DNA of 64,000 nt, from contig CAZEMQ010000001.1 in the NCBI GenBank assembly GCA_964513435.1, forward strand, positions 5,883 through 69,882, written 5' to 3'. This document shows, in pieces, positions 8,655 through 64,000 of the stretch; position 1 is the first letter of the stretch; every line of letters begins with the position of its first letter. The DNA comes from an uncultured Muribaculaceae bacterium (GTDB taxonomy: Bacteria; Bacillota_I; Bacilli_A; RF39; UBA660). The notes beneath the pieces are model-generated. The model ran no database searches. It was not told where the DNA came from and saw only the letters and a list, made by a program, of their open reading frames with translations. A program made the position numbers and the translations under genes.

Positions 8655-9140
8655 ATGGAGATTAATTTAGGTATTTTTCAGATTTTATGTGGACTTCTCT
8701 ACATTATTGGAGCACCGTTTGGATGGGATTATATGTACACATCAATCATTGTTTGTGTGTATCTTTGGCCTATCTTGTGTACATTATCGACATTGCCGAT
8801 TCTTTATTATGCGATAAGGAAATTTATACAAACTAAAAGAATTGTTTGGGGCGTTACAAGCTGTTTGTCTTTGGCATATACTTATATGTACGTTGCCTCT
8901 ACTTTTGTTTGCCACAAACTATGGGGATTAAATTATGAAGGTGGCTACAGATGGGCTTTTGCAGAAGTTGTAGATATTTTAAGACGGTGTGCAGTAATAT
9001 TACATACAACTTATGAAATGTTAAATATATTTATTTACGTAATCTTATTTGCGTTTATTATTGGTTTTAACCTGTTTATCACTTCTCTTCTAAAAAGAAG
9101 TTTTAATGAATATGAACTAAGAAATGATACTACTTTTTAA
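8655..9140 (+). CDS. multi-pass membrane protein
   Basis: Four or more hydrophobic segments. Confidence 0.4.
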   Translation: MEINLGIFQILCGLLYIIGAPFGWDYMYTSIIVCVYLWPILCTLSTLPILYYAIRKFIQTKRIVWGVTSCLSLAYTYMYVASTFVCHKLWGLNYEGGYRWAFAEVVDILRRCAVILHTTYEMLNIFIYVILFAFIIGFNLFITSLLKRSFNEYELRNDTTF

Positions 9141-9311
9141 TATATGAAAATTGATGATTATAATATACCAAATGCGTTGTTAGATGAAGAAATAATAAAT
9201 ATCTTAGAGTATGCTGAAGATGCTGAAGCTGATTATTGGATAGACTATTATAAATCTAATCCAATACAAGATTCTTAGAATTTTTAATTTATTAACTATT
9301 AATTTTTTGTT

Positions 9312-9491
9312 ATGAAAAGTTTATTATTTATTTTTGCTTTGATGTGTGGGATTTCATGTACAAATCCTACAAATTCTTCAAGTTCTGTTGAACAAACTGA
9401 TTTCTCTGAATCAACTACAATAGATTCTATTTACATCGAACCTATTGATTCAATAGTTGCAATAGATACAACTGTAGTAGATTCTCTGTAA
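9312..9491 (+). CDS. small secreted protein or lipoprotein (59 aa)
   Basis: Manual ORF MKSLLFIFALMCGISCTNPT... with signal peptide plus Cys. Confidence 0.3.
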   Translation: MKSLLFIFALMCGISCTNPTNSSSSVEQTDFSESTTIDSIYIEPIDSIVAIDTTVVDSL

Positions 9492-9663
9492 TATTTAAAA
9501 CTAGTTTATACAGAATCTGCACAAATGGTTAGTCCTTTATAGTTTTAAGGTAAACTTATCGCTATACGAACTGTATATTTATTCTCAATGTTATGTGATG
9601 CAGCTACATGAATGAGAAACTAGTTTTAAACTAATAGAGTATATAACAGATATTTTAATATAT

Positions 9664-10455
9664 AAATTATCGGGGCTGACGGGTTTTGACAGCGATAATG
9701 ATATAAGTAAGACGTGTAGAGCGCGATCTCTTTAAACGAAGAAAAACAATAAATGCAAACTACAACAAAGTAAGAATGGCTGCCTAAGCAGCTGGCTCAG
9801 TTAATGATATGTTGAGTCGGGTTACAGGAGAGACCTAGAAACAGAAGAGGTGTGCAGAAGAAGGATTATAGAGCCACTGCACTTAACTTGAAAGCCAAAG
9901 GTTAGTAAAGCTGAATCTCCTACTATTGTCTTTAAACAGAAGGGATGTGTGCCTGCGTGGTTGACTCACCACAAACACTCGTTTTCTGCTTTAGCGTTAA
10001 AAAGTAGGTGACGGAAGGTGCTTCAACGGAGCCTTCTAGTTTCTCCAAACTATAAATGGAGTGGTAGATGTTGACTGTTCTAGTCAGTCCTAGTTTGTTA
10101 ATATCATATAACTAAATAAGCTGAACCTCAACAGTTAAAAATAGAGACACACGTTATCTTATTTATTAAATATTGTTGGACGAGGGTTTAATTACGGACC
10201 AGTTAGATGGTGACATCTAATTAAAAATATCGGATGAATTCAGGGAACGCTAAAAATAAAGCTCAGAATCAGCTTTATTCATGCCAATCCTGAGCTAAGC
10301 ACAAGGTACACCTTGTGAAAGTGCAACGACTACCGGAGAAGTTTAGCCTTCTTAATCACCGGCTTGAGCGTCCGACATCTCATTTTGAGATGATGATATA
10401 GTCTAATCTTCTTCGAAAGAAGTATAAGAACATTTTGCGATTCCCTCCAGCTCCA
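9664..10455 (+). ncRNA. ssrA: tmRNA (ssrA), interrupted in the T-loop by a group I intron
   Basis: 5' GGGGCUGACGGGUUUUGACAGCG is a tRNA-like domain start. The resume codon GCA sits ~90 nt in; tag ORF GCA AAC TAC AAC AAA GTA AGA ATG GCT GCC TAA (9755-9787, ANYNKVRMAA). The 3' end GAGGG-TT/CGATT-CCCTC-CAGCTCC-A forms a T-arm and acceptor stem complementary to the 5' end. Confidence 0.7.
10189..10437 (+). other. group I intron (ORF-less, ~249 nt) within the tmRNA T-loop
   Basis: Conserved P AATTCAGGGAAC, Q AATCCTGAGC, R GCAACGACTACC and S GATATAGTCTAA elements in canonical order. The intron ends in G and the upstream exon ends in U. Confidence 0.65.
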
Positions 10456-10473
10456 CGAACTAATTATTTTAAT

Positions 10474-10857
10474 ATGACAACAATAGAAGAATTAGCTAAT
10501 AAAGCATTAGCTAAAAATCCAGAAGATAGAACATACGCAGATAGATATTATATCTGGAAATATGATCGTCTTAAAACAGGAATAAATCCCTACGATGAAG
10601 GTGAAGAAATAGAAATTTATGATGGAACCAAACTTGCTAATAATGAAATAAAGGATGGTTTTGGATGTGATTTTCCAGAGTGGTTTAGAGAATGTGGTAA
10701 ACACTTTGGAGAAAGAGTAAAACTTAAACACAGTAAAGAAGTTCAAACTCTCATAGGAATGTCTTATACGTATGTAGATTGCTATTATATCTTAGAATCT
10801 AACAATAGTAAAATATATACAAGTTGTGTAGAAAGTATAGAATTTTTAGGATATTAA
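10474..10857 (+). CDS. hypothetical protein (start moved to the internal ATG; the track ORF N-terminus overlaps the tmRNA 3' end)
   Basis: Track ORF 10435..10857. Confidence 0.4.
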   Translation: MTTIEELANKALAKNPEDRTYADRYYIWKYDRLKTGINPYDEGEEIEIYDGTKLANNEIKDGFGCDFPEWFRECGKHFGERVKLKHSKEVQTLIGMSYTYVDCYYILESNNSKIYTSCVESIEFLGY

Positions 10858-11117
10858 TTTTAAATTTATTAGAAATGAAAAAAGATTTAAGAGAAACTTG
10901 TATAAATTTGATTTTAGATAATTCTGAAATTAAAAATATTATTTGTTTAATGAGTAATGGTGAAGAATTTAGCGGAATAGTTGAAGGAATAAACGCAGAT
11001 ATTTCATGTCTTCTTTTACAAGCTATGTTAGACAGACCTTATCTTTATCCTATATTTAAAAATGCTGTAGAAACATATATAGAAATAAAATTAGAAAACA
11101 ATAATAAATTAAACTAG
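10824..11117 (+). CDS. hypothetical protein (ends in TAG, then 13 more sense codons to TAA)
   Basis: ORF; the C-terminus is ambiguous under TAG reassignment. Confidence 0.3.
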   Translation: MCRKYRIFRILILNLLEMKKDLRETCINLILDNSEIKNIICLMSNGEEFSGIVEGINADISCLLLQAMLDRPYLYPIFKNAVETYIEIKLENNNKLN

Positions 11118-20274: not shown

Positions 20275-22619
20275 TTGAAGCGAATGAATAGAGATGAAAG
20301 ACAAACTTTATGTATTAAAAGATGGATAAACACTAAAGGACGCGCAAGCATTGTTGCAGCCACTGGATTTGGGAAGAGCTACGTTGGATTACGAATTATT
20401 CGAGGAATTATATCTAAGAAACGTGATTGCAAGGTTATAATTGTAGTTCCAACTATTACTTTAAAAGAGCAATGGACTAAATCAATTGATAAATGGGGAT
20501 TTACTCTTAATTGTGATATACAGGTTATAAATACTTCTATTAATAAAGAGCAAAATTGTGACTTATTAATAATTGATGAATGTCATACTGCGAATGCTGA
20601 TACTTTTAAACAAGTATTTGAAAAAATAAAGTATAGATGGATTCTTGGTCTTACAGCTACATTTGAGAGAATTGATGGTAAGCACGAAATATGCAGTAAG
20701 TATTGTCCAGTATGTGATACAATTTCAATAAATGAATGTTTAGAGAATGGTTGGGTTTCTCCTTTTAAGGAATATCAAGTTATTATTGATGTGGATGACA
20801 TTAATATTTATAAAGGATACAGTAAAGAATTTACTAAGTCTTTTGAATTTTTTGGGTTATGTGGCCCCTATTATTAGTAATAATAGAAAACCCTTTGAAA
20901 ATCTGAACCCCCATTTACATTTTGTTTTGTGTGTAAAATTTAGTAAATTTGTATTATAAATATTGACTAAATTTTAAAACTATGACTGAAAAAGAATTAG
21001 AAAAATTAAAAACATTAGAAAAATGGGAAACAGATAACCAAGGTTTAATTAAAGGAGATTGGAAATTACTAGAAGTATATAAAGAAATAAAAAAGCCTCA
21101 TCAAAAATATTGTATTATAGAATGTATTCATTGTGGTGAGACTAGATTAGTTTTGTATTACAATTTTCTAAAAAAAGAGTCCCCAAGACCATGTACTAAA
21201 TGTGGTGGAAAATGGATCACTTGGGGCAAATCTATGGTTGGCAAAATTGTAGGACATTATAAAATACTTAAATACATTGAGTGTATTAAAAGAATTTCTA
21301 ATAACAAGATAGATGTTTTCTTTAAAGTATAGTGTATATATTGTGGAGATATTAAAGAGAGAGAATTATATAACAAATCTAATTGGAATAGATATAAATT
21401 ATGTCCAAAATGTCCTAGAAGAAGAAACGATTATTATACTGTTAGATATAAAGAATATCAAAACGGAGCTAAATCTAGAAATTTAGCATGGAATCTTTCT
21501 TTAGAAGATTTTATTAAAATTAGTACTAGTAATTGTTTTTACTGTGGAGCAGAAGCCTAGGTACAAAATAGAGTACAACATGGTTGCTTAGTATCTTTAG
21601 AAGGAAATTTTAATGGAATTGACAGAGTAGATTCTAATTATGGATATACTGTAGATAACTGTGTTCCATGTTGTTCTCATTGTAATATGATGAAAATGCA
21701 CTATACAAAAGAAGAATTTTTATCTTAGATTTATAAAATATATCTTCATTCAATTAAACAAGGTCAAGAGACTATCGAAAACACATCTAATGATGGAAGT
21801 GAGTAGAGTACATTACAAGCTAATGGTAATGGAAGCGGAGGGTGTCCTATAAAGGATAATGAGATAGTCCAATCTATATAGTAATATATAGCAGTTCATA
21901 AGAGAACGTATATAACGTTGCGAGTTATATAGAATATAAATGTCGACTGGAACAAAGTAAATTCTTGTCTTGGTAAAGATGGATATAAATACCGTTATCA
22001 ACTAAGTAAGGAAATGTGTCCTAATGATGAGGAGAAAAGAAAAAACATGATGAAAAACATTACTTATCATGCAACTAACTTTATGCGTGTTCTTCAAGCT
22101 AGAAAATCATTTATCAATAATCATCCAAAGAAATTAGAAATAGCTAGAAAAATTATTGAAGCTAGACCTAATTCTAAAATTATTACTTTTAGTAATAGTA
22201 TAAAAATGGCTGAATCTATTGGAATAGGCCCTGTCTATTCTGGAAAAGATAGTAAGAAAAAAGGCAGAATTACGCTTGAAGAATATATTAATGGTAATTA
22301 TCAAGTTCTAAATACAATAAGAAAAGCAGATGCTGGTCTTGATATTCCGTCTATTTCTGTTGCTATAATTATAGGTACAGATAGTAGTAAAATTAGAGCA
22401 ATACAACGCCTTGGACGTACTTGTCGTTTTGAAGAAGACAAACGTGCTGAGATTTTTAACATCATTATTAATAATAGTGTGGAATTATCTTGGTTTGCTA
22501 ATTCACATCCAGATAATAACTATATTACAATAGACGAAAATGGACTTGATCAAGTCTTGAAAGGAGAAGAGCCTAAACTATATACTAAAAAGGTAAAGGA
22601 TTTTCAATTTAGATATTAA
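20275..22619 (+). CDS. SF2 (DEAD/DEAH-like) DNA helicase, interrupted: exon 1 20275..~20860, exon 2 ~21990..22619
   Basis: N part carries motif I ATGFGKS, motif II IIDECH and motif III LTATFER. C part carries motif V TIRKADAGLDIP and motif VI QRLGRTCR. A ~1.1-kb insertion lies between them. Confidence 0.6.
20861..21990 (+). mobile_element. putative group I intron carrying an HNH homing-endonuclease gene
   Basis: Splits the helicase. An R-like element TATTGACTAAA lies upstream of the HEG and an S-like element AATGAGATAGTCC downstream. Boundaries approximate. Confidence 0.5.
20982..21884 (+). CDS. HNH homing endonuclease, TAG-recoded (5 in-frame TAG)
   Basis: Track ORF 20982..21332 ends in TAG and the frame continues. 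CxxC...CxxC zinc ribbon, then NGIDRVDSNYGYTVDNCVPCCSHCNMMK as in the HNH_3 family. Confidence 0.6.
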
Positions 22620-22731: not shown

Positions 22732-23349
22732 ATGTTAAATCTTACAACTAATTTAGAAAATGAAATCTCTTTATTAAAGAAGTATAAAATTACTTCTAAT
22801 GAATTAATGTTTATAAGAACTCTTCTTATTTTACAAGATGAGGAAAATGAGAACCTATTTAAAGATTATATAGAAAGTTTAAGAGAATGTAATATAAAGT
22901 TAAGAGATATATTAATTTCATTACAACAGAAAGGAATTATATTAAAAAGTTTTAAAATTCCAACGGAAGGAACAAGATTTAACCCACATGAAATACCAAT
23001 TAATAAAATATTTATAAAAACATTGTATAAAAGTTCTTTTAAACTCGGAAAAGAATTATTTGAAAAATATCCACAATCGTGCATTATAAATGGAAATATT
23101 GTCATGCTGAGATCAGTATCTAAACATTTTAATTCGTTAGAGGATTGTTATTATAGATATGGAAAAAACATCGGATGGAATGAAGAAAAACATAAAAAGA
23201 TAATAGAACTTCTAGAATGGGGTAAAGAAAATAATATAATTCAACAGTCATTATCATCATTTGTTATAAATAATGCTTGGTTAGATTTAGAAGCTATTAA
23301 AAATGGCAATTCTAGTAATTATAACTTTGAAAACATTAAGATGCTATGA
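22732..23349 (+). CDS. hypothetical protein
   Basis: ORF from the track. Confidence 0.3.
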   Translation: MLNLTTNLENEISLLKKYKITSNELMFIRTLLILQDEENENLFKDYIESLRECNIKLRDILISLQQKGIILKSFKIPTEGTRFNPHEIPINKIFIKTLYKSSFKLGKELFEKYPQSCIINGNIVMLRSVSKHFNSLEDCYYRYGKNIGWNEEKHKKIIELLEWGKENNIIQQSLSSFVINNAWLDLEAIKNGNSSNYNFENIKML

Positions 23350-24419
23350 TTACTGAGTCGTTAATAGAAGCTATCGACAGAGGACGTGAGGGGAAAGAAC
23401 AAGGTATTAGTATCGGACTACCAAAATTGGAACAATATATAGATGGAGTATGTAAAGGAGTATACACACTTACTATGGCTGAAAGTGGAGTAGGTAAATC
23501 CAGTTTTATGCTTTATTCTTATGTGTATAGACCTCTTATTGATCATTTGGATGATAATAAACTGCGAATAAGTATATTCTCATTAGAAATGAATGCAAAT
23601 ATGCTTATGGCTAAATTACTTTCTACTTATATATTTGAACATTATAATGTTAGATTAAGTATAAAACAATTATTATCTGTACAAAGAGGTTTTAGATTAA
23701 ATGACAATTGTTATAAAATTGTACAAGAGTGTATTCCTTGGATGAAAAAAGTTGAATCTGTACTTACCATCTATGATAAAAGTGCTACAGCAAACTTTAT
23801 ATATAAAAGTTTGTTAAATGAACTTAATAATAGAGGTAAGTTTATAGAAACTGAACATCGAAAAATATATATTCCGAATGATCCTAATTTAACCCATATT
23901 GTTATTGTTGATCATATTGGTAGAATTATGCCTAGTGCAGGTTCTACATTAAAACAAGAAATGGATTTAGCTTCTAAGTATTTATATTCTTTAAAAAATA
24001 GATGTAATATTACTCCTATTGTCATTCAACAGATGAATAGAAGTATTCAAAGCATGGATCGTAGGAAAGAATCAATGATAACACCTTTAACCTCGGATGC
24101 AAAGGATACTAATGCTACAATTGAAGATGCAGAATCAATATTAGCTATATTTTCTCCAGATAAAGCTAAACTTAGTACATATAAAGGATATGACATAAAA
24201 GAGTTAGGCGATTCGTTTAGAAGTATTCATGTATTGAAATCTAGATATGGTGAAGCTAATGTTGAAGATGCTGTTTACTACGATGGTAAATGTAACAAAT
24301 GGATTGAATTACCACGAGCTAATGAAATTAATGATTACGAAAAGTATAAAAATCCTAGATGGTATTTAGAAAAAGATAAAGAAGATAATGAAAAACAAAA
24401 TTTTGATTTTACAATATGA
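23346..24419 (+). CDS. DnaB-family replicative helicase (RecA-like domain)
   Basis: Walker A ESGVGKSSF, Walker B IVIVDHIG, arginine finger region. Confidence 0.55.
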   Translation: MITESLIEAIDRGREGKEQGISIGLPKLEQYIDGVCKGVYTLTMAESGVGKSSFMLYSYVYRPLIDHLDDNKLRISIFSLEMNANMLMAKLLSTYIFEHYNVRLSIKQLLSVQRGFRLNDNCYKIVQECIPWMKKVESVLTIYDKSATANFIYKSLLNELNNRGKFIETEHRKIYIPNDPNLTHIVIVDHIGRIMPSAGSTLKQEMDLASKYLYSLKNRCNITPIVIQQMNRSIQSMDRRKESMITPLTSDAKDTNATIEDAESILAIFSPDKAKLSTYKGYDIKELGDSFRSIHVLKSRYGEANVEDAVYYDGKCNKWIELPRANEINDYEKYKNPRWYLEKDKEDNEKQNFDFTI

Positions 24420-41885: not shown

Positions 41886-43184
41886 ATGAAATATTGTATG
41901 ATAAAAGTAAGAAAAAGAAATGGAAATCTTGTACCTTTTGAAGTGCATAAAATAGAAAATGCCCTTCAAAAGGCTTTTCTATCTTGTAATTATAAGATAG
42001 ATAAATCTATAATAGAAGAAATTGCAAGCAATGTTAGTATCTGGAATGAGATCAGTGTAGAGGATATTCAAGATCAAGTAGAGGAGCTGTTGATGGATTA
42101 TGATTTCCCATCAGTTGCTAAGTCTTATATTCTTTATAGAGCTAAACATAGTGAAGCTAGATTTATTAAAGAGAGAATAGATTATATGAATAAATATAGT
42201 CTATCTAGTGATAATGCAGCTACTTCTTCAGAGACAGATGCCAACGCTAATGTTACTATGAAGAATGTTGCTAATCTAGAAGGAGAAGTATACAAGACTA
42301 CTAATAGAATTATTCAAAGACAAAGAATAAAGGATAAGTTATCTGAACTCTTTCCAGAGATAGCTAAGCAATATGAAAAAGATCTTGAAAACTATATAAT
42401 TTACGCACATGATGAGTCGCAGACTCCTACCCCGAAGGCATATTGTATGGCTGCGACTTTATATCCTTTAATGCTTGAAGGAACAGGCAGTATTGATGGG
42501 ATAACCCCTTCAGCACCTAATGACATTCAATCTTTTAGTGGACAAGTAACCAATTTAATGTTTCTACTGTCTTCACAAGTTCGTGGAGCAGTGGCAATGG
42601 GTGACTATATAATAGCTTTAAATTATTATGTAATTAAAGAGTTTGGAACTAGTTGGTATGAAAAACTAAATGCTATAGTAACCTCAGAGTATTCTATAAA
42701 TAAACGTACTATTAAAGATAGTATTAGGAAAGGAATGAAACAATTTATTTATGGAATAAATCAACCAGCTGGTAATAGAAGCTACAATAGTCCTTTCAGT
42801 AATTTAAACTTCTTTGATAAATATTATTATGAAGCTCTTTTTGATGAATTTTATTATCCTGACGGAACAAAACCTGAATGGAAAGCAATAGACTGTTTAC
42901 AAAGAATGTTTATGGAATTACTTAGAGAGTTAAGATTAATTAAACCCCTTACATTTCCTGTAACTTCTGTATGTATGTTACATGATAATCATGATTGTTT
43001 AGATCAAGAATGTAAGAAATGGGTTGCTGAAGAATGGGCTAAAGGTAGTAGTTTCTTTCTATATCTAAGCAATAATCCAAATTCAGTATCTAGTTGTTGT
43101 AGAGTACAAAATGAAATAACTGAGAATACATTTAGCTCTACTACAGGAATGACTGGGGTCAAGTCATGGCCCTTATGTGCTTAA
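41886..43184 (+). CDS. nrdD: anaerobic ribonucleotide reductase NrdD, N-terminal piece (ATP-cone + core)
   Basis: VRKRNGNLVPFEVHKIENAL is an ATP-cone; this piece ends ...TGMTGVKSWPLCA-TAA. Confidence 0.6.
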   Translation: MKYCMIKVRKRNGNLVPFEVHKIENALQKAFLSCNYKIDKSIIEEIASNVSIWNEISVEDIQDQVEELLMDYDFPSVAKSYILYRAKHSEARFIKERIDYMNKYSLSSDNAATSSETDANANVTMKNVANLEGEVYKTTNRIIQRQRIKDKLSELFPEIAKQYEKDLENYIIYAHDESQTPTPKAYCMAATLYPLMLEGTGSIDGITPSAPNDIQSFSGQVTNLMFLLSSQVRGAVAMGDYIIALNYYVIKEFGTSWYEKLNAIVTSEYSINKRTIKDSIRKGMKQFIYGINQPAGNRSYNSPFSNLNFFDKYYYEALFDEFYYPDGTKPEWKAIDCLQRMFMELLRELRLIKPLTFPVTSVCMLHDNHDCLDQECKKWVAEEWAKGSSFFLYLSNNPNSVSSCCRVQNEITENTFSSTTGMTGVKSWPLCA

Positions 43185-48389: not shown

Positions 48390-49598
48390 ATGATTACTTA
48401 TTTATTAGGAAAATCATCTACTGGAAAATTTAGATTTGCTGTAATTACTTGGGATGAAGAATGGAAAGAACCTGAACATGGATTTCTTATTATTAGAGAA
48501 TATGGCCAAGTGAAAGGTAAAACTACAAAAGCTCCAGAAATATGGATAAAAGTAGGAAAAGCAGGAAGAACTCACAGAGAGCAAACTATTTTACAATATA
48601 ATCATTTAGTTAAAGAATATACAGATAAGGCATACAAAATTGTAGAAAAACATCCAAATGAATACTCTTTAGAAGAACTTAATGAGATTTATGGTGATGT
48701 TAAAATGCGTGGAGATACTGTAAAACCCATGTTAGCCAAACAAGAATCGGCTGTAACAAATCGTAAAATCTTTGAAGATAGAGATTGGTACGGAAGTCGA
48801 AAAGTAAATGGAGTTAGAGCTTTAATATTTTATGATGGGGAAAGAATAAGAACTGCTTCTAGAGGTGCTACTAATTATGATTTAGCTATATATCATATTA
48901 TAACTCATCCGTTATTAATACAATTTTTTAAAAATCATCCCAACGTAATATTAGATGGCGAAATTTATAAATATGGAGAAAGTCTTAATAAAATTTCTGG
49001 AATATGTAGATCCCAGAAAACAATAGAAGATGGAAAAGATTTAGAATTTTATTGGTATGATATAGCCGATTTAGAACTCTCATTTTCCGAAAGATATATT
49101 CTTATGCAAAAATGGAGTAAAGAGCTACAACTGTCTGAATTTAATCCAGAAAGACATCTTTCAGATGATACTCTTCATATACAATTTCTGCCACACGTAC
49201 TTACAAGAGGATTTGATAATATGAAAAAATTACATGATGGATATGTTTCTGAAGGGTGGGAAGGTTTGGTAATCAGACAAGCTGAATCTAAGTATAAACC
49301 AGGTACACGTTCTAATGATTGGATTAAGATAAAAGAGTATTTTGAAGCAGAATATCCGATAGTAGGTCTTTCCGAAGGATTAAGAGAAGAAGATATGTGT
49401 TTTATATTAGAAACTCCGAATGGTCAAAGATTTAATTGTAAACCTATGGGTGACAGAGAACAAAAACAATGGTATCGAAAACATTTAGATAAACTTATAG
49501 GTAAACTTTTAACAATAAAATATTTTGAAATGTCAGGTGTTGAAGGTTCTGAGATTCCCCAACAGCCTGTTGGAATTTGCATACGTGATTATGAATAA
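48390..49598 (+). CDS. ATP-dependent DNA (or RNA) ligase
   Basis: Motif I SRKVNGVR, III ILDGEIY, IV EGLVIRQ, V DWIKIK. Confidence 0.5.
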   Translation: MITYLLGKSSTGKFRFAVITWDEEWKEPEHGFLIIREYGQVKGKTTKAPEIWIKVGKAGRTHREQTILQYNHLVKEYTDKAYKIVEKHPNEYSLEELNEIYGDVKMRGDTVKPMLAKQESAVTNRKIFEDRDWYGSRKVNGVRALIFYDGERIRTASRGATNYDLAIYHIITHPLLIQFFKNHPNVILDGEIYKYGESLNKISGICRSQKTIEDGKDLEFYWYDIADLELSFSERYILMQKWSKELQLSEFNPERHLSDDTLHIQFLPHVLTRGFDNMKKLHDGYVSEGWEGLVIRQAESKYKPGTRSNDWIKIKEYFEAEYPIVGLSEGLREEDMCFILETPNGQRFNCKPMGDREQKQWYRKHLDKLIGKLLTIKYFEMSGVEGSEIPQQPVGICIRDYE

Positions 49599-50778: not shown

Positions 50779-51133
50779 AATGAACTTAAATGAATTTAGA
50801 ACATTAAGAAAACCTTTTTATATCCATCCAGAAACTTTATTAATTAAGTTTCCCAGACAAAAACATCTGGATAGTTCTTGCGCGGAATGGTTCAGTGACG
50901 AAAATATTCCTTTTTTACATACAATTAGAGGATATTATAATGAAGAGGATAATTATGTAATGTTATATACTAATGATTTTGAAACACCAGATATTAGTAT
51001 AAAATTCTTAACATACATTTTTGAATATTTTCCTAATATAGATTGGATTGGTATAGGGTGTATTAAAGGAAAGGAAGGTGAAATATGGAGTCCAAAAATG
51101 AAAATACAAAGAACAAATGTTAATAAGAAATAA
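50771..51133 (+). CDS. hypothetical protein
   Basis: ORF from the track. Confidence 0.3.
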   Translation: MNKMNLNEFRTLRKPFYIHPETLLIKFPRQKHLDSSCAEWFSDENIPFLHTIRGYYNEEDNYVMLYTNDFETPDISIKFLTYIFEYFPNIDWIGIGCIKGKEGEIWSPKMKIQRTNVNKK

Positions 51134-53673
51134 GATTGTTATTGTATATGATATAGAATTATTTCCCAATGTTTTTTATTGCACATTAAAAGAAACAGAA
51201 TCAAATAAAAATGTTTCATTAGAAATTTCAAATCGAAAAAACGACATACACAAAATAATTAATTTTTTTCATAGAGTTAAAACAAAAGTAAACTCTAGAA
51301 AAGAAATTAAAGATAAATATATATTTTGTGGATATAATAATATACACTACGATAATGTTATAATTAATTATATAATTGCTAATCGAGAACGATTAATAAA
51401 TTGTAATTATGCACAAATATGTGCTGAATTATTTGAATTAAGTAATCAAATTGTTAATTCTGGAGACGGTATTCAATCTTGGTATAAATGGAAACATCTT
51501 ATTTATTTTGACACTTTAGATTTACTCACAATGTTGTTTTCTCAAAAACTTAGAGTAGGTTTAAAATCTATGCAAGTAACAATGCAATATTCAAATGTTC
51601 AAGAATATGAAGGTGATTTCAGTAAACCATTACCAGATTCTGAAATTCCAAAGATGGCTGCATACAATATCAATGACGTTGAGAGTACAACAGAATTATT
51701 AAACAGATGTAAATCGGATATTGATTTAAGACTTAATATTGAAGAAGAATACAATATTGATGTTTTAAATAAAGATGGGGTGAATATTGGAATGCAAATT
51801 ATTGCACAAAAATATTTGGAAAAAACTAAATTAAAATGGAAAGATATTAAAGATTTACGAGATCCGTGTGATGTTATAGATCTTAATCAAATAATTTTAC
51901 CATTTATCAAATTTGATAATCCGATTTTACAAGATGTATTAATAGAACTTAAAAAACAAAAAGTATCTCCAGGTAGAAAAGGTTACGAACGACATTTTCT
52001 ACTAGATAATGTTGAATATACCATAGGAGTGGGTGGTATTCATAGTGTAAATACACCTGATATATTCAAATCTGATGAAAATTGGGTAATTTCAGATATT
52101 GATGTTGCGTTAATACATTGGCGCAAGTAAAACAAACTAAATTGCGGGAACATTCTTAGAGCTTTTGTTACCAACTTATAATAGTAATATATAAGGGCAA
52201 AACTAATCACTTTGATAAGGTAAAAAGACAAAAGATTGGATAATCCGCAGCCAAGTTACCTATTTTAGGTAAAAGGTTCACAGACTATTCCTTTATGGAA
52301 GTAGGGTATAAGTGACGTTTATATCCGAAAAAGTTTGAATTTATTTTGGGAGCTAGCATTACATACTTTTAGATAAAGACGAACTAGCCTTAAAAGGAAT
52401 GTATCAAAATAAATTATGATATAGTCGATAATGAGTCGAAAGATTCATACACACGAGTAAACGTCTTAGTGTGTGAGAAAAGCGATGTATCCCAGTCTTA
52501 TAATAGAACATAAATTTTATCCACCTCAATTAGGAGAAGCGTTTTTACATATTTATTCTAAAATTAGAGAAGAAAGAGTAGAAGCTAAACATAAAGGATT
52601 TAAAACAAAAGATGCTACATTGAAGTTAGCCTTAAACGGGTTGAATTTTCGTTTCAGCTCCTTCATCCAGGGATGGATGATGTAAACAAACCAAAATCGG
52701 TGAAAGTCTGGAATGATAATACCGAGGTAATTGTAGAAACTAAAGAGTCTACAACACCGTACAGCATAGAGACTGAACCTGATTAGTCAGAATAAAATGT
52801 CTCCACGAGTGGTTTGATCTAGAACAGAATAAAATATATGCGGATCTATAACGAATTAATAAGTTATAGAAGTATGGGATAAAAAACCTGTACGATAACA
52901 ACAATGTGAGTGGCATGCTTCAAAATGAGTATAGCTTTTGTTATTCTCCCATTACAGCTATGAAAGTTAGAATAAATGGACAATTAATGTTATTAATGTT
53001 AGCAGAACGGTTAATTAACATTGGTTGTAAGGTCTTAAACGCAAATACGGATGGAATCTTTGTATTAAGATCTCGTTCTGAAGAAAAAATGTTTCAACAG
53101 GTTTGTAGGGAATGGGAAAAATTAACCAAACTTACACTTGAAGAAGATAAATTTGAAGCCTTTTATCAATTTGCTATTAATGATTATCTTGCGATTAAAG
53201 AAGGATATAGTAAAACTAAAAATCCAAAACTATTAAAGAAAAAAGGATTATTTATAGATACTGTATCTTTAGGGAAAGGAATGAATGCAATAATTATTCC
53301 AGAGGCAATTAATAAATATCTTGCAGATAATATTCCGTTAAAAGAAACCATATATAATTGTAAAGATATTAGTAAATTTTTAACTTTTCAGAAAGTGGCA
53401 AAAACCTTTTCTGTGGAATATAATGGTAAATTAATTACTCATATAAATAGATATTATGTATCAACTGATGGGTATAGTCTTTATAAATGTAAAGTCAATA
53501 CAAAAGGAGAAAGAAGTGGATATATAAATATGTTAAAAGGATATGGAGTAACTATAACAAACAATCTTGATGAAATAAAAGAATTTCCGAATAACGTTAA
53601 TTATAATTATTATATCACAGAAGCTAATAAAATAATCACAAAACTTAAACAAAAACAGTTAAGTTTGTTTTAA
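51117..53673 (+). CDS. family-B DNA polymerase, three exons (51117..52110, 52483..~52640, ~52888..53673)
   Basis: Exo motifs YDIELFPN, YNNIHYDNV and YNINDVES. Spliced motif A DIDVA|SMYPSLII; motif B region KLALNG|LYD; DTDG motif C variant in exon 3. Confidence 0.6.
52111..52482 (+). other. group I intron (ORF-less, 372 nt) in the DNA polymerase
   Basis: P AAATTGCGGGAAC, Q AATCCGCAGCC, R GGTTCACAGACTAT and S ATGATATAGTCG are all near-consensus. Exon 1 ends in U, the intron ends in G, and splicing restores motif A. Confidence 0.7.
52641..52890 (+). other. second intervening sequence in the DNA polymerase (~250 nt, type unresolved)
   Basis: Exon 2 terminates at TAA 52683 after motif B begins. 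The exon 3 frame opens at ~52870 and completes motif B. Core intron elements are not clear. Confidence 0.35.
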
Positions 53674-60357: not shown

Positions 60358-63300
60358 TTATGTTCCAAATGTACCACCTTCTCTCTTAGTTCTAAACATA
60401 TCTGGTTTAATTGCATCTAATACAGGTTTAATCTATTTTAAACCTCCTGATGTTTTAACTATTCCATCCCAGAGATCTTCTTCACCTGTAAGAACTTTTA
60501 TACCTTGGTTAGTCATTCTAGCTCCCCATTCAAAAGAAAAAGGTGTCCATTGTCCAAGTGGTCCACCGATAGATTCTATCGCATTAAAATCCATAAATGA
60601 ATTTTTTACAGCCATTACAGCAATATTTGCAGCAGTAATACCTAGACCAGTAACAACATCTCTATTTTTTATATTATCTTCTTTTAATTCTTTTAACCAA
60701 TCTGCTAATAATGCACCGATTATTGATCCTCCTATCAACCACATTGTTAAATCATAACCAGCCTATTTTATGTTACTTCTGTATGCTCTTCTGAGGTTTT
60801 CATCCTGATTATTCCAAGTAGCATCCCAACCTTGTTTAAAAGATCCAGCATTTTTACTATTTATAACTAATTCCGCAAATGTAGCCATAATTCCTTCTTG
60901 CCAAAGCCCTTTCCACTACATTACAGGAGCTATAGTTTGCATTCCTCTTCTGATTATTTCATCTTCACTTAAAGGAGGTTCATTATAAAGGATATTACCA
61001 CTCTAGTCTACCTGATAGTAATATTTTACAGTTTTTCTTTCTCCTGTATTTCTATCAATTATTGTTTCAGTATAATGTTCCCAGTTTCCTCTAAGACGTA
61101 CACCTCCAGATTGTAAATACTAATTCTTTTTACCAGACCAATATGTTTTAAATTGCAACCACATACTTCCTGCTAATGTAGACATTATTAAGGATCTTTT
61201 TTCGTGAGAATAATATCCATAAATATCATCAGCAAGTGATTTCATACTTTCAGCTTCTTTATTAGTATATGCTCTAGGTAGAGGTTGTGGATTAGACATA
61301 TCTAATTTAAATAAAGTTCCGTCTTTGTTTCTGGTACGCTCTGCTTCAAATTGTTTTGCTACAGCGTAATATAACGATCTCTATTCGTTATACTTGGGAT
61401 CAGATACCCTACCGTTAGCAAATGCCTCAAATCTTTTATCCTTTTTCCAGTCGTATATCAACTCTCCTTTTTCATTTATATGATGCGCATAATAACAGCC
61501 ATCTCCTAACATCTAAGCAATAAAAATAGTCATTCTATTATAATAATCTGGTCTAGAAGCAAATTTAAATAACATATTTGTAAAATTCCAAATACCTTTT
61601 CTAGAAGTACTTATTTTATCCACATAAGTATTCATATCTATGTCATTTAATCCGAATAATTCATTAAATGCAGAACATAAAGTTGGAGTATCTGAAAAGT
61701 GACTTAAATCAGAATAAACTATCTTTAATGCTTTTTTGAAATTATTAAAAGTAAAAGAATCTTTTCCATCGGGTTTTCTAATCATTAAACTTATATCGAC
61801 CCATAATCCTTGTAAAGGCTAATAAATAGCTTGTACTGGAGCAAATGCTAAGGTAGCTTTTGATGCTGCGGATTTAATCAATCCTAGTTTGTTAGCAAGA
61901 CCTTGCAATTTTGGATCTACTATAGATTGATTAAAGATCTTATTTCTAATATAATTATTAATGTATTCCATATCTTTACTGAATACATTGTTCTATATAG
62001 ATCCTTGTGTTGCAAGATGAATCATAGCTGCTTTTATCATAGGAAATACTCCATCTACATTATCTTTTATAGAATATGCAAACAAGTGTTTATATAATAA
62101 TGTTTCTAGATTGTGTTCAAGATTTTCAATACCTAATGACTTAATTTTATCTAATCTTCGAGCTTCATTTTCTCCTCCATCAAATAAATTAGTCATAGTA
62201 AATAATATTTGTGAATCTTGCTAGTCACTAGTCTCAACTTCGGCATTGAAAATTCCCTCTAACTTTTCCCTAGCTTTTTTAAATGCAACAGATGGCATAA
62301 GATACCTTAATTTACCTTTTAATGCAGATAATAATCCTACTGTAGAAACCAATGAATCATCACTACCCCTAGCTAATGGAACTCGATAATATCTTACATC
62401 ATCTGTTTCTTTCATTTTCTAAAGCTCTTCATCTGTCATAAGGGGATACCTATTTTTATTTATCTTATATAGACAATACTCTAAAAATTCTCTTTCAGCT
62501 CCTTGTAACCTATTAGGATTTTTAAACATAAAATCTCCATCAGCTGTTACTTCTGTCATATTTTCATATAATGAAACTTGATTTCCTATCGTCCTTTCTT
62601 CTAACTTACCAAAACTTTTCTATCTTTTTAAGTTTCTTATTAGCCTAGTAATTTCCACTTTTTCTTTTTGCATTTCATCACGTACATTTTGATAAGCCTA
62701 CGTTGTAAGCTAAGTAACTAAATTTAAAGTTTCACTGTTCATGTTTCCTGGATTATCAAAATATGTTCCAGACCAACCATCTTTAAATATCATGATACTT
62801 TCAATCCATTTATCATGGTCAGACAACTACTGTCTAAATTTTATTCCATTAGCTTCAGCGATTGCAAATAAAATTGCATTATGTAAAGAAACTTCTTTGG
62901 AGTTTATTTCTGCTTGATTTGTGTATATTTTGTCTAGATAATTATATCCAGTTCTACTAGTTGTTACAGTGTTAAGTATTGATAATACTTTATTCAAAGC
63001 TGCTATTTTATCAGGAGCACTAGCATCTATATTTTCATCAAGAACTGTTCTACATTCTCTTAAAGATGATAATTTTCGATAACTATCTCTCCATCCATAA
63101 TTATCACCCTCTGTCATTATATGATCGAATAACATTCTACACTATTCGTACATTGTAGCAAATTTGATAGTTCCATCAGAAATCTTATTATTCTAAACTC
63201 TATGGTGTTTGTTTAACTCCGTCCAACAGTATAATAACTATTCATTTGTTACCAATAATCCATCACCAAATTTAGGATTAACTATACGTACATTACCAAC

Positions 63301-64000
63301 TGTATATCCTTCTATACCAGACATCTAATTAATTAGAAGTAATGTTTCCATTAATTCTATGTTCCCATTTACTGCTTCTAACATCATTGAATTAGATCTG
63401 GATTTTTGTGCAACATCGGGTTCATAAGATCCTGTTAATAAAGTTCTATTCTTCAATGGATTATCTTTACTTAGATATTTTCTATAATTAGTTTTTAAGT
63501 TATTAGTACTAACTCTAATAAAATCTATTTGTTTAGGATAAAATCCATCTTTTGTTTTTAATGTTAATATTCCGAATGATTCTAACAGTTCGTTATCTAA
63601 AATTTCCCAAGTTCCATTACAATACGGAGATAAGTTATCACGTAACCAATACATTTCTCTATCAGTAGATCTAAACTTAGGAGAAGGGAAGTCTACACTT
63701 TTTATTCCATTTTTTATAGCTTCGTTTATAGCACGCTTAATATCTGCTGTATATCTAAGTCTATTAGCAGGCTAACTTTGCATAAATTTTGTTACTTTCT
63801 AAACAAACTCAGGTTCTGAATTAGCTGTTATAGGACTACTACCATCAGATAAAGATAATGTGAATATATTATTTTCGTCAGGAGTCAATTTTTTCCACTG
63901 TTTAAGCATTTTAATTACTTCATCTTGTGTAATTTCACGAACAGATGAATAATCAGGAAACCATTCACTCATAATATCTTTAACTTGCTACGTAGCTTCT
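60358..64000 (-). CDS. very large TAG-recoded late/virion protein (partial, continues past the window end; possibly tape-measure or injection protein)
   Basis: One continuous minus-strand frame >1200 codons long. It is broken only by TAG (>20 in-frame, e.g. revcomp CTA at 60433, 60763, 60916, 61003, 61120, 61381, 61513, 61819, 61993, 62221, 62419, 62620, 62698, 62710, 62827). It ends with TAA at 60358-60360. The six minus-strand track ORFs are consecutive segments of it. Confidence 0.55.

Follow-up and report, generated by a model that had tools for sequence, protein, structure and literature searches.

A probable intron-form tmRNA gene of a crAss-like phage, interrupted in its T-loop by a compact group I intron predicted to splice

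The window (i.e., the whole stretch of 64,000 nucleotides that was analysed) carries at 9672-10455 what is very probably a phage-encoded tmRNA (ssrA) gene in the "intron form" already on record, interrupted by a 249-nt group I intron of subgroup IA type that is predicted to splice (Table 1). Exon 1 begins with the acceptor strand GGGGCUG (9672-9678), continues with a D-loop analogue, P2, the tag frame and a pseudoknot region that holds a long insertion, and ends with the 5' half of the T arm (GAGGG-UU); exon 2 supplies the remainder of the tRNA-like domain. On the unspliced DNA, the Rfam tmRNA model RF00023 (curated threshold, 47 bits; region 9000-11000, sensitive mode) matches 9679-10194 with 46.1 bits (E 1.3e-16); the 3' tRNA-like half is absent and the match runs directly into the intron. 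When 10188 is joined to 10438, a T arm, GAGGG-UUCGAUU-CCCUC, and an acceptor stem, GGGGCUG/CAGCUCC, are formed, the latter with the G3-U70 pair (G9674-U10452), and the intron is found to lie between bases 2 and 3 of the seven T-loop bases (UU/CGAUU). The spliced tmRNA would be about 536 nt, which is atypically long, with a 186-nt insertion relative to the RF00023 model. Its 3' CCA is not fully encoded (...CUCC-A-CGA), while two relatives, L031 and L032, do encode it; an encoded CCA is not universal among tmRNA genes.

Table 1. Coordinates of the split tmRNA gene and of the structural elements of its intron in the window
Feature	Coordinates	Strand	Description and basis
tmRNA exon 1	9672..10188	+	RF00023 match; 88% identity to intronless L020
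Tag frame	9755..9787	+	GCA resume codon, ANYNKVRMAA, UAA stop 9785-9787; ARAGORN on spliced construct
tmRNA exon 2	10438..10455	+	CGAUU (T-loop), CCCUC (T-stem), CAGCUCC (acceptor), discriminator A
Intron	10189..10437	+	RF00028; ends fixed by intronless alleles; covariation
P1	10185-10189/10196-10200	+	Exon GGUU plus intron U, with guide GGACC; sequence, centroid fold
P2 hairpin	10203..10220	+	7 bp, GUGA tetraloop; compensatory changes in 5/7 pairs
Catalytic core	10230..10404	+	Rfam alignment, coordinates, covariation
P3	10230-10236/10369-10375	+	
P4 (P with Q)	10240-10245/10288-10293	+	UCAGGG/UCCUGA
P5	10249-10250/10283-10284	+	
P5a	10255-10263/10271-10279	+	
P6	10294-10295/10321-10322	+	
P6a	10300-10306/10311-10317	+	
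P7 (R with S)	10328-10332/10399-10403	+	GACUA/UAGUC, plus A10326-U10404 across bulged C10327
P7.1	10333-10336/10359-10362	+	
P7.1a	10337-10341/10348-10352	+	
P8	10376-10382/10386-10392	+	
P9	10408..10428	+	7-bp stem, GAAA tetraloop; 6/7 pairs covary

The initial annotation had recognised the intron and left its host gene unnamed. A protein-coding host was considered and rejected: no frame that ends at the 5' splice site stays open for more than 23 codons, so a protein exon upstream is excluded, and no plus-strand ORF is present in 9492-10434, which takes in the 940 bases upstream. On the other side of the intron, the listed ORF 10435-10857 (+) starts at a TTG that overlaps the intron end and exon 2; its true start is likely the ATG at 10474, and its 127-aa product has no PHROG match. 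Scanning for sigma-70 promoters and terminators around the tmRNA gene was uninformative.

Intronless relatives were recovered with a pattern for the 5' part of the tmRNA, which led to 27 IMG/VR viral contigs of 44-270 kb, and with a second tmRNA pattern, which led to six metagenome contigs. The closest relative, on viral contig L020, has an uninterrupted tmRNA (97.2 bits with RF00023), to which the window gene, spliced in silico, aligns end-to-end with 88% identity (426/482). Across the junction, the spliced window and L020 are identical, with GGACGAGGGTT before it and CGATTCCCTCC after it, and their acceptor stems differ by a compensatory change (GGGGCUG/CAGCUCC in the window, GGGGAUG/CAUCUCC in L020). 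The boundaries 10189 and 10437 are exact, because only that cut gives the T arm of the intronless allele. The intron is absent from all of the complete relatives (26/26 from IMG/VR and 6/6 from metagenomes, i.e., 32/32), and the window holds the sole intron-bearing allele among the 33 genes of its tmRNA group. The tmRNAs of this phage group (the window, L002, L004-L030 and L157-L162) are long, at about 490-565 nt versus the 374 positions of the Rfam model, and a large insertion follows the tag. Two of the metagenome relatives, L157 and L160, have an odd T arm, GACGG-AGCGUUA-CCGUC, where the canonical one reads GGGUUCGAUUCCC.

The tag frame is kept in 35 genes (the window and 34 related ones) with amino-acid variation. 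The encoded tags include ANYNEVRMAA, ATYSEVRMAA, AEIAPVRMAA and ANNSVRLAA, among others, and end in -VRMAA or -VRLAA; the usual Bacteroides tag ends in -ALAA. Conservation of the resume codon, of the 10-codon frame and of the stop, with residue changes that preserve the C-terminal -V-R-M/L-A-A, indicates that selection acts on a translated tag.

The intron itself is ORF-less and has a G+C content of 38.6%. The Rfam group I intron model RF00028 (threshold, 50 bits) matches 10180-10425 over its full length with 95.4 bits (E 2.5e-23), the sole above-threshold group I match in the 64-kb window. The P, Q, R and S motifs lie at 10237, 10286, 10323 and 10395; each motif string occurs once in the window, on the plus strand and in the right order. 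The last base of exon 1, U10188, forms the U-G wobble of the 5' splice site with G10197 in P1 (10185..10200, loop AAUUAC), a wobble kept in 8/8 homologues. In P7, the pair G10328-C10403, next to the bulged C10327, is also invariant in 8/8 homologues and, by family membership, would be the guanosine-binding pair. P9 is followed by a 9-nt tail that ends in omega-G10437, the last base of the intron. Structure prediction, which had been proposed as a check, recovers P1, P2, P3, P4, P5/P5a, P6a, P7.1/7.1a and P8 in the centroid fold of 10182-10444, whose folding energy lies at z = -3.64 versus 200 shuffles. P7.1 and P7.1a are present and covary, and there is no P5abc; together with a GNRA-loop P2 and a short GAAA-loop P9, this is the layout of what we take to be subgroup IA. 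Three features of the window copy are weaker: its P1 has 5 bp versus 6 bp in most relatives, its P9 carries a 3-nt UAU bulge found in no relative, and its P10 is limited to C10438-G10196 and G10439-C10195, the A-U pair that comes next in relatives being an A-A mismatch here.

This core was examined by covariation in a MAFFT alignment of the window intron with seven introns at the identical T-loop position, i.e., those of cr128_1 (L001), of the 735-kb phage LR756501 (L003), of IMG/VR contigs L031, L032 and L036 and of MAG contigs L121 and L124. The test structure was written from the window and comprised P1, P2, P3, P4, P6, P6a, P7 (as a pseudoknot), P7.1, P7.1a, P8 and P9. Across the eight introns, 96.2% of the cells are paired, versus 36-43% when the 3' partners are slid by 1-3 columns, changes are found on both sides in 29 of the 64 pairs, and the observed values are reached by none of 500 shuffles. 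P3, P4, P6, P7 and P8 are 90-100% paired, with compensatory changes. The few unpaired cells in P8 and P9 are partly alignment error, because MAFFT shifts P8 of cr128_1 and P9 of the window out of register by 1-3 columns. The omega position is A (...UAUUUA/CGA) in four intron-form tmRNAs (L003 at 2759, L036 at 8382, L188 and L207), and the catalytic cores of these four introns are intact; in the published survey, omega is G in all intron-form cases (PMC11915505).

The Rfam match, the covariation in eight homologues and the reconstitution of the exons uphold the initial description of a compact group I intron with P, Q, R and S elements, in which P and Q form P4 and R and S form P7. Equally, the upstream exon ends in U and the intron in G, as had been proposed; the extent given for the intron, 10189-10437, is the sole cut that rebuilds the intronless T arm; and the reported lack of a homing endonuclease gene agrees with our finding no ORF of at least 30 aa within 10189-10434 on either strand. 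The region 52111-52482, suggested there for comparison as a polymerase intron, stays below the RF00028 threshold. The DNA polymerase is spread over three plus-strand ORFs (51117-52130, 52473-52685 and 52906-53673, in the region 51117-53673), and the gap at 52101-52448 does contain P-, Q-, R- and S-like strings; its RF00028 match is sub-threshold (46.1 bits, threshold 50; E 2e-10) and was seen only in a 901-base scan, being missed in the whole-window scans.

From this conservation of sequence and structure, we infer that the intron is splicing-competent. In the primary transcript, it would fold into P1-P9 and follow group I chemistry: an external guanosine, held at the P7 pair G10328-C10403, would attack the bond after U10188, positioned by the U10188-G10197 wobble, and the freed 3'-OH of U10188 would then attack the bond after omega-G10437, joining the exons. 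The ligated exons would read ...GACGAGGGUU up to the junction and CGAUUCCCUCC from it. Splicing would by this way restore the T arm GAGGG-UUCGAUU-CCCUC and an acceptor stem with the alanine identity pair G3-U70. After end processing and completion of the CCA, the tmRNA of about 536 nt would be charged with alanine and, together with SmpB, take part in the rescue of stalled ribosomes, with ANYNKVRMAA as the tag that it adds.

Judged by its sequence, the carrier of the tmRNA gene is a crAss-like gut phage. Over its N-terminal part, the DNA polymerase has its nearest matches in crAss-like phages (56% identity), ORFs tested downstream at 13-49 kb match phage families, and PHROG matches comprise fragments of a DnaB-like helicase, NrdD, DNA ligase, an exonuclease and an ATPase. 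The G+C content per 1-kb window is 22-35%, low on both sides of the tmRNA gene, which lies about 10 kb inside the 64-kb window. Related tmRNAs are located internally in viral contigs of 94-270 kb, and one is carried by cr128_1, whose crAss-like genome is complete at 95 kb. A megablast of positions 1-24000 of the window against the phage collection gave no match and no near-identical genome. The NrdD, DNA ligase and DnaB-like genes look fragmented, because their ORFs (41886-43184, 48390-49598 and 23346-24419) match only part of the PHROG profiles. At 60361-63999 (-), a frame of 1213 codons runs off the window end and contains 22 in-frame TAG and no TAA or TGA. It requires TAG read-through to stay open, which suggests that TAG may be reassigned in late genes, as described for crAss-like phages; the plus-strand genes change little under TAG read-through.

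The introns most similar to that of the window are those of L121 (85% identity) and cr128_1 (78%); the 5' exons of these two tmRNAs are only 48-50% identical to that of the window. Since similar introns thus reside in dissimilar tmRNAs and the 88%-identical L020 gene is intronless, the better reading is that the intron would have been gained recently and laterally, through the conserved T arm, rather than inherited from an ancient insertion. Its source would most likely be another phage tmRNA sharing the T-arm target. The proposal that the intron is either ancient or mobilised by a free homing endonuclease gene is accordingly not borne out: the 32/32 intronless relatives and the similar introns in different tmRNAs argue against the former, and the latter lacks a significant endonuclease homologue in the window. 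Endonuclease ORFs are present in two of the homologous introns: that of cr128_1 (L001 3243-3803, -; 8468-9028 of NC_055885) lies after P9 in antisense orientation, and that of L124 (5577-6140, +) lies in the loop of P8 in sense orientation. Their products are homologues with 42% identity (E 2e-36) from an HNH/EndoVII-like PHROG family; that the ORFs differ in place and orientation implies separate entries of the endonuclease gene into the intron in the two lineages. Searching the window for homologues of these two endonucleases gave none that is significant, the best tblastn hit (E 0.11) being in a free-standing HNH-like frame, at 21615-21755. Mobilisation in trans by a cognate free-standing endonuclease is thus possible and unsupported. 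A free-standing HNH/EndoVII-like frame, weakly similar to the tmRNA-intron endonucleases, lies at 20982-21730 (+), with the motif GIDRVDSNYGYTVDN, a Cys-rich N-terminus and an in-frame TAG at 21558. Most likely, the window intron lost its endonuclease gene or never had one.

ARAGORN, which serves as tmRNA finder in the phage-annotation pipelines consulted, such as Pharokka, reported no tmRNA on the raw window, on the unspliced region or on the plain spliced construct, even at a 90% threshold; lowering the threshold to 80% produced nothing but an artefactual "permuted" call, whose tag was correct. Shortening the internal insertion of the spliced construct by 120 nt or more made the program call a standard tmRNA, with its start at 9672 and ANYNKVRMAA as the tag, which indicates a length cap; identical deletions with the intron retained yielded no call. 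On unspliced intron-form loci, ARAGORN found the tmRNA in 0/6 cases, and after in-silico splicing alone it called four of eight intron-form tmRNAs. Among four intronless members, it called that of L020 (about 490 nt) and missed those of L002, L026 and L161 (about 540-565 nt). This constitutes an annotation blind spot, in which no intron-form gene is detected and the intronless versions of about 540-565 nt that were tried are missed as well. Phage tmRNAs such as that of cr128_1, whose RefSeq record annotates only the endonuclease in the region, stay unannotated because of it.

How far the gene can be taken as functional and as the phage's own depends on three other readings. The intron could be a splicing-dead relic and the tmRNA gene a pseudogene without a working T arm: P1 and P10 are weaker in the window than in any other copy of the set, its P9 bulge is unique, a sole intron-bearing allele among 33 could be a recent damaging insertion, and the four omega-A relatives imply that defective copies may exist. 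We nevertheless hold this to be very unlikely, since all of the conserved RF00028 core positions are intact, as are the U-G wobble at -1, omega-G and the G-C pair of P7, since tag frame, G3-U70 and complete pairing in T arm and acceptor stem are retained by the exons, and since the differences from relatives are compensatory, not random. Hardly credible at all is an origin of tmRNA and intron in the bacterial host, at a prophage attachment site, or in a mis-assembled contig. Indeed, prophages commonly use ssrA as their attachment site, proviruses often have a tmRNA gene at their side, and several IMG/VR matches at contig ends may be host genes; the window gene, however, is about 10 kb inside the window between flanks of low G+C, in the company of phage-family ORFs and a crAss-like polymerase, its relatives are interior to large viral contigs and occur in cr128_1, and neither its 536-nt length, which is atypical, nor tags ending in -VRMAA speak for a host gene.

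The remaining alternative concerns the role of the spliced RNA, which, instead of serving for rescue, might inhibit host trans-translation or act on it as a decoy, or might be a sensor, in the manner of the tag-less tmRNA of phage DS6A. A phage tmRNA that inhibits the host tmRNA is among the cases cited in PMC11915505, the tags of the phage group differ from the usual host type, and the extra 186 nt relative to the Rfam model is a large insertion. Such a role is unlikely, given that resume codon, 10-codon frame and stop are conserved, that the C-terminal -V-R-M/L-A-A is kept and that G3-U70 is kept too. A phage-borne rescue tmRNA that is matured by splicing is the reading that we retain.

The first intron-form tmRNA to be described was that of Clostridium botulinum (Williams 2002, as related in PMC11915505 and PMC2729099), whose 287-nt intron self-splices (PMC2729099). 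A survey has since assembled 883 unique intron-form tmRNA sequences, with a mean intron length of 293 nt over 843 founding sequences and endonuclease genes in 4% of the introns (PMC11915505). Among the T-loop subsites, 7 is common, and 2, 3 and 8 are rare; position 3 counts nine instances, all in the class Bacteroidia (PMC11915505). As read from the 1-8 numbering of that paper, UU/CGAUU is internucleotide position 3, which makes the window element a member of a known, rare class. In IMG/VR, a scan for an S element followed by the 3' half of the T arm gave 47 loci; 26 of the 47 have a matching 5' junction and position-3 introns of 217-248 nt, and ARAGORN accepts 11 of these 26 after in-silico splicing. 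The contigs measure 4-425 kb. The figure of 26 is an upper bound for phage-borne copies, because contig-end matches may be host ssrA beside proviruses. In bacterial genome contigs, a 15-base junction pattern gave at least 119 matches, mostly due to chance and no measure of frequency, and among the matches listed only L121 and L124 are real. On the 27-kb IMG/VR contig L031, a GOLLD RNA (RF02032, 330 bits, 2509-2918) lies about 1 kb from the intron-form tmRNA.

What is new here is an intron-form tmRNA in a phage, the gene form being already known from bacteria; our literature search found no paper on intron-form tmRNA in phages. These results extend to a phage a gene form previously described from bacterial genomes and show that crAss-like and huge phages harbour the rare position 3 class, which is present on at least 26 further IMG/VR contigs, some of them perhaps with host genes beside proviruses. 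They also offer a clear example of intron transfer between tmRNA genes that differ strongly, by way of the T arm that these share. Two wider ideas, which we judge doubtful when taken jointly, may be put forward. Phages (crAss-like and huge), and not Bacteroidia chromosomes, could be the main home and vehicle of position 3 introns; the few "Bacteroidia" entries of the tmRNA database would then be phage contigs binned into MAGs. As a possibility, the long, divergent-tag tmRNA might be carried because late-gene TAG reassignment would flood the cell with read-through, non-stop ribosomes, and the intron would in that case make tmRNA maturation depend on correct RNA folding.

The introns of T4 td and nrdB, Twort and SPO1 are phage group I introns of subgroup IA. 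The window intron is like them in its short-guide P1, GNRA-loop P2, compact P4-P6 without P5abc, P7.1 between P7 and the 3' strand of P3, and short GAAA-loop P9; those introns split protein genes, several of them with endonuclease ORFs, whereas the window intron splits a stable RNA. With the introns of tRNA anticodon loops, it shares a location in the loop of a tRNA-shaped RNA, where the regular exon structure fixes the splice sites, but its own loop is the T-loop, and its host RNA a tmRNA. Phage-borne ssrA is also known from the tmRNA genes of huge phages and mycobacteriophages, which are uninterrupted and were found by ARAGORN (PMC7162821; PMC11915505). The huge-phage study relied on ARAGORN, and the word "intron" is absent from its text (PMC7162821); the 735-kb phage LR756501 of that study carries an intron-form tmRNA that ARAGORN missed. 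The nearest known system is the intron form itself, with which the window gene shares the split T-loop, the -1 U in a U-G wobble, omega-G, a similarly short intron (249 nt) and the lack of an endonuclease gene, as in about 96% of those introns. Compared with the surveyed tmRNAs as the paper describes them, that of the window is unusually long (536 nt), and it uses the rare subsite 3 where C. botulinum uses the common subsite 7. Finally, the carrier is a bacterial chromosome there and, on our reading, a crAss-like phage here.
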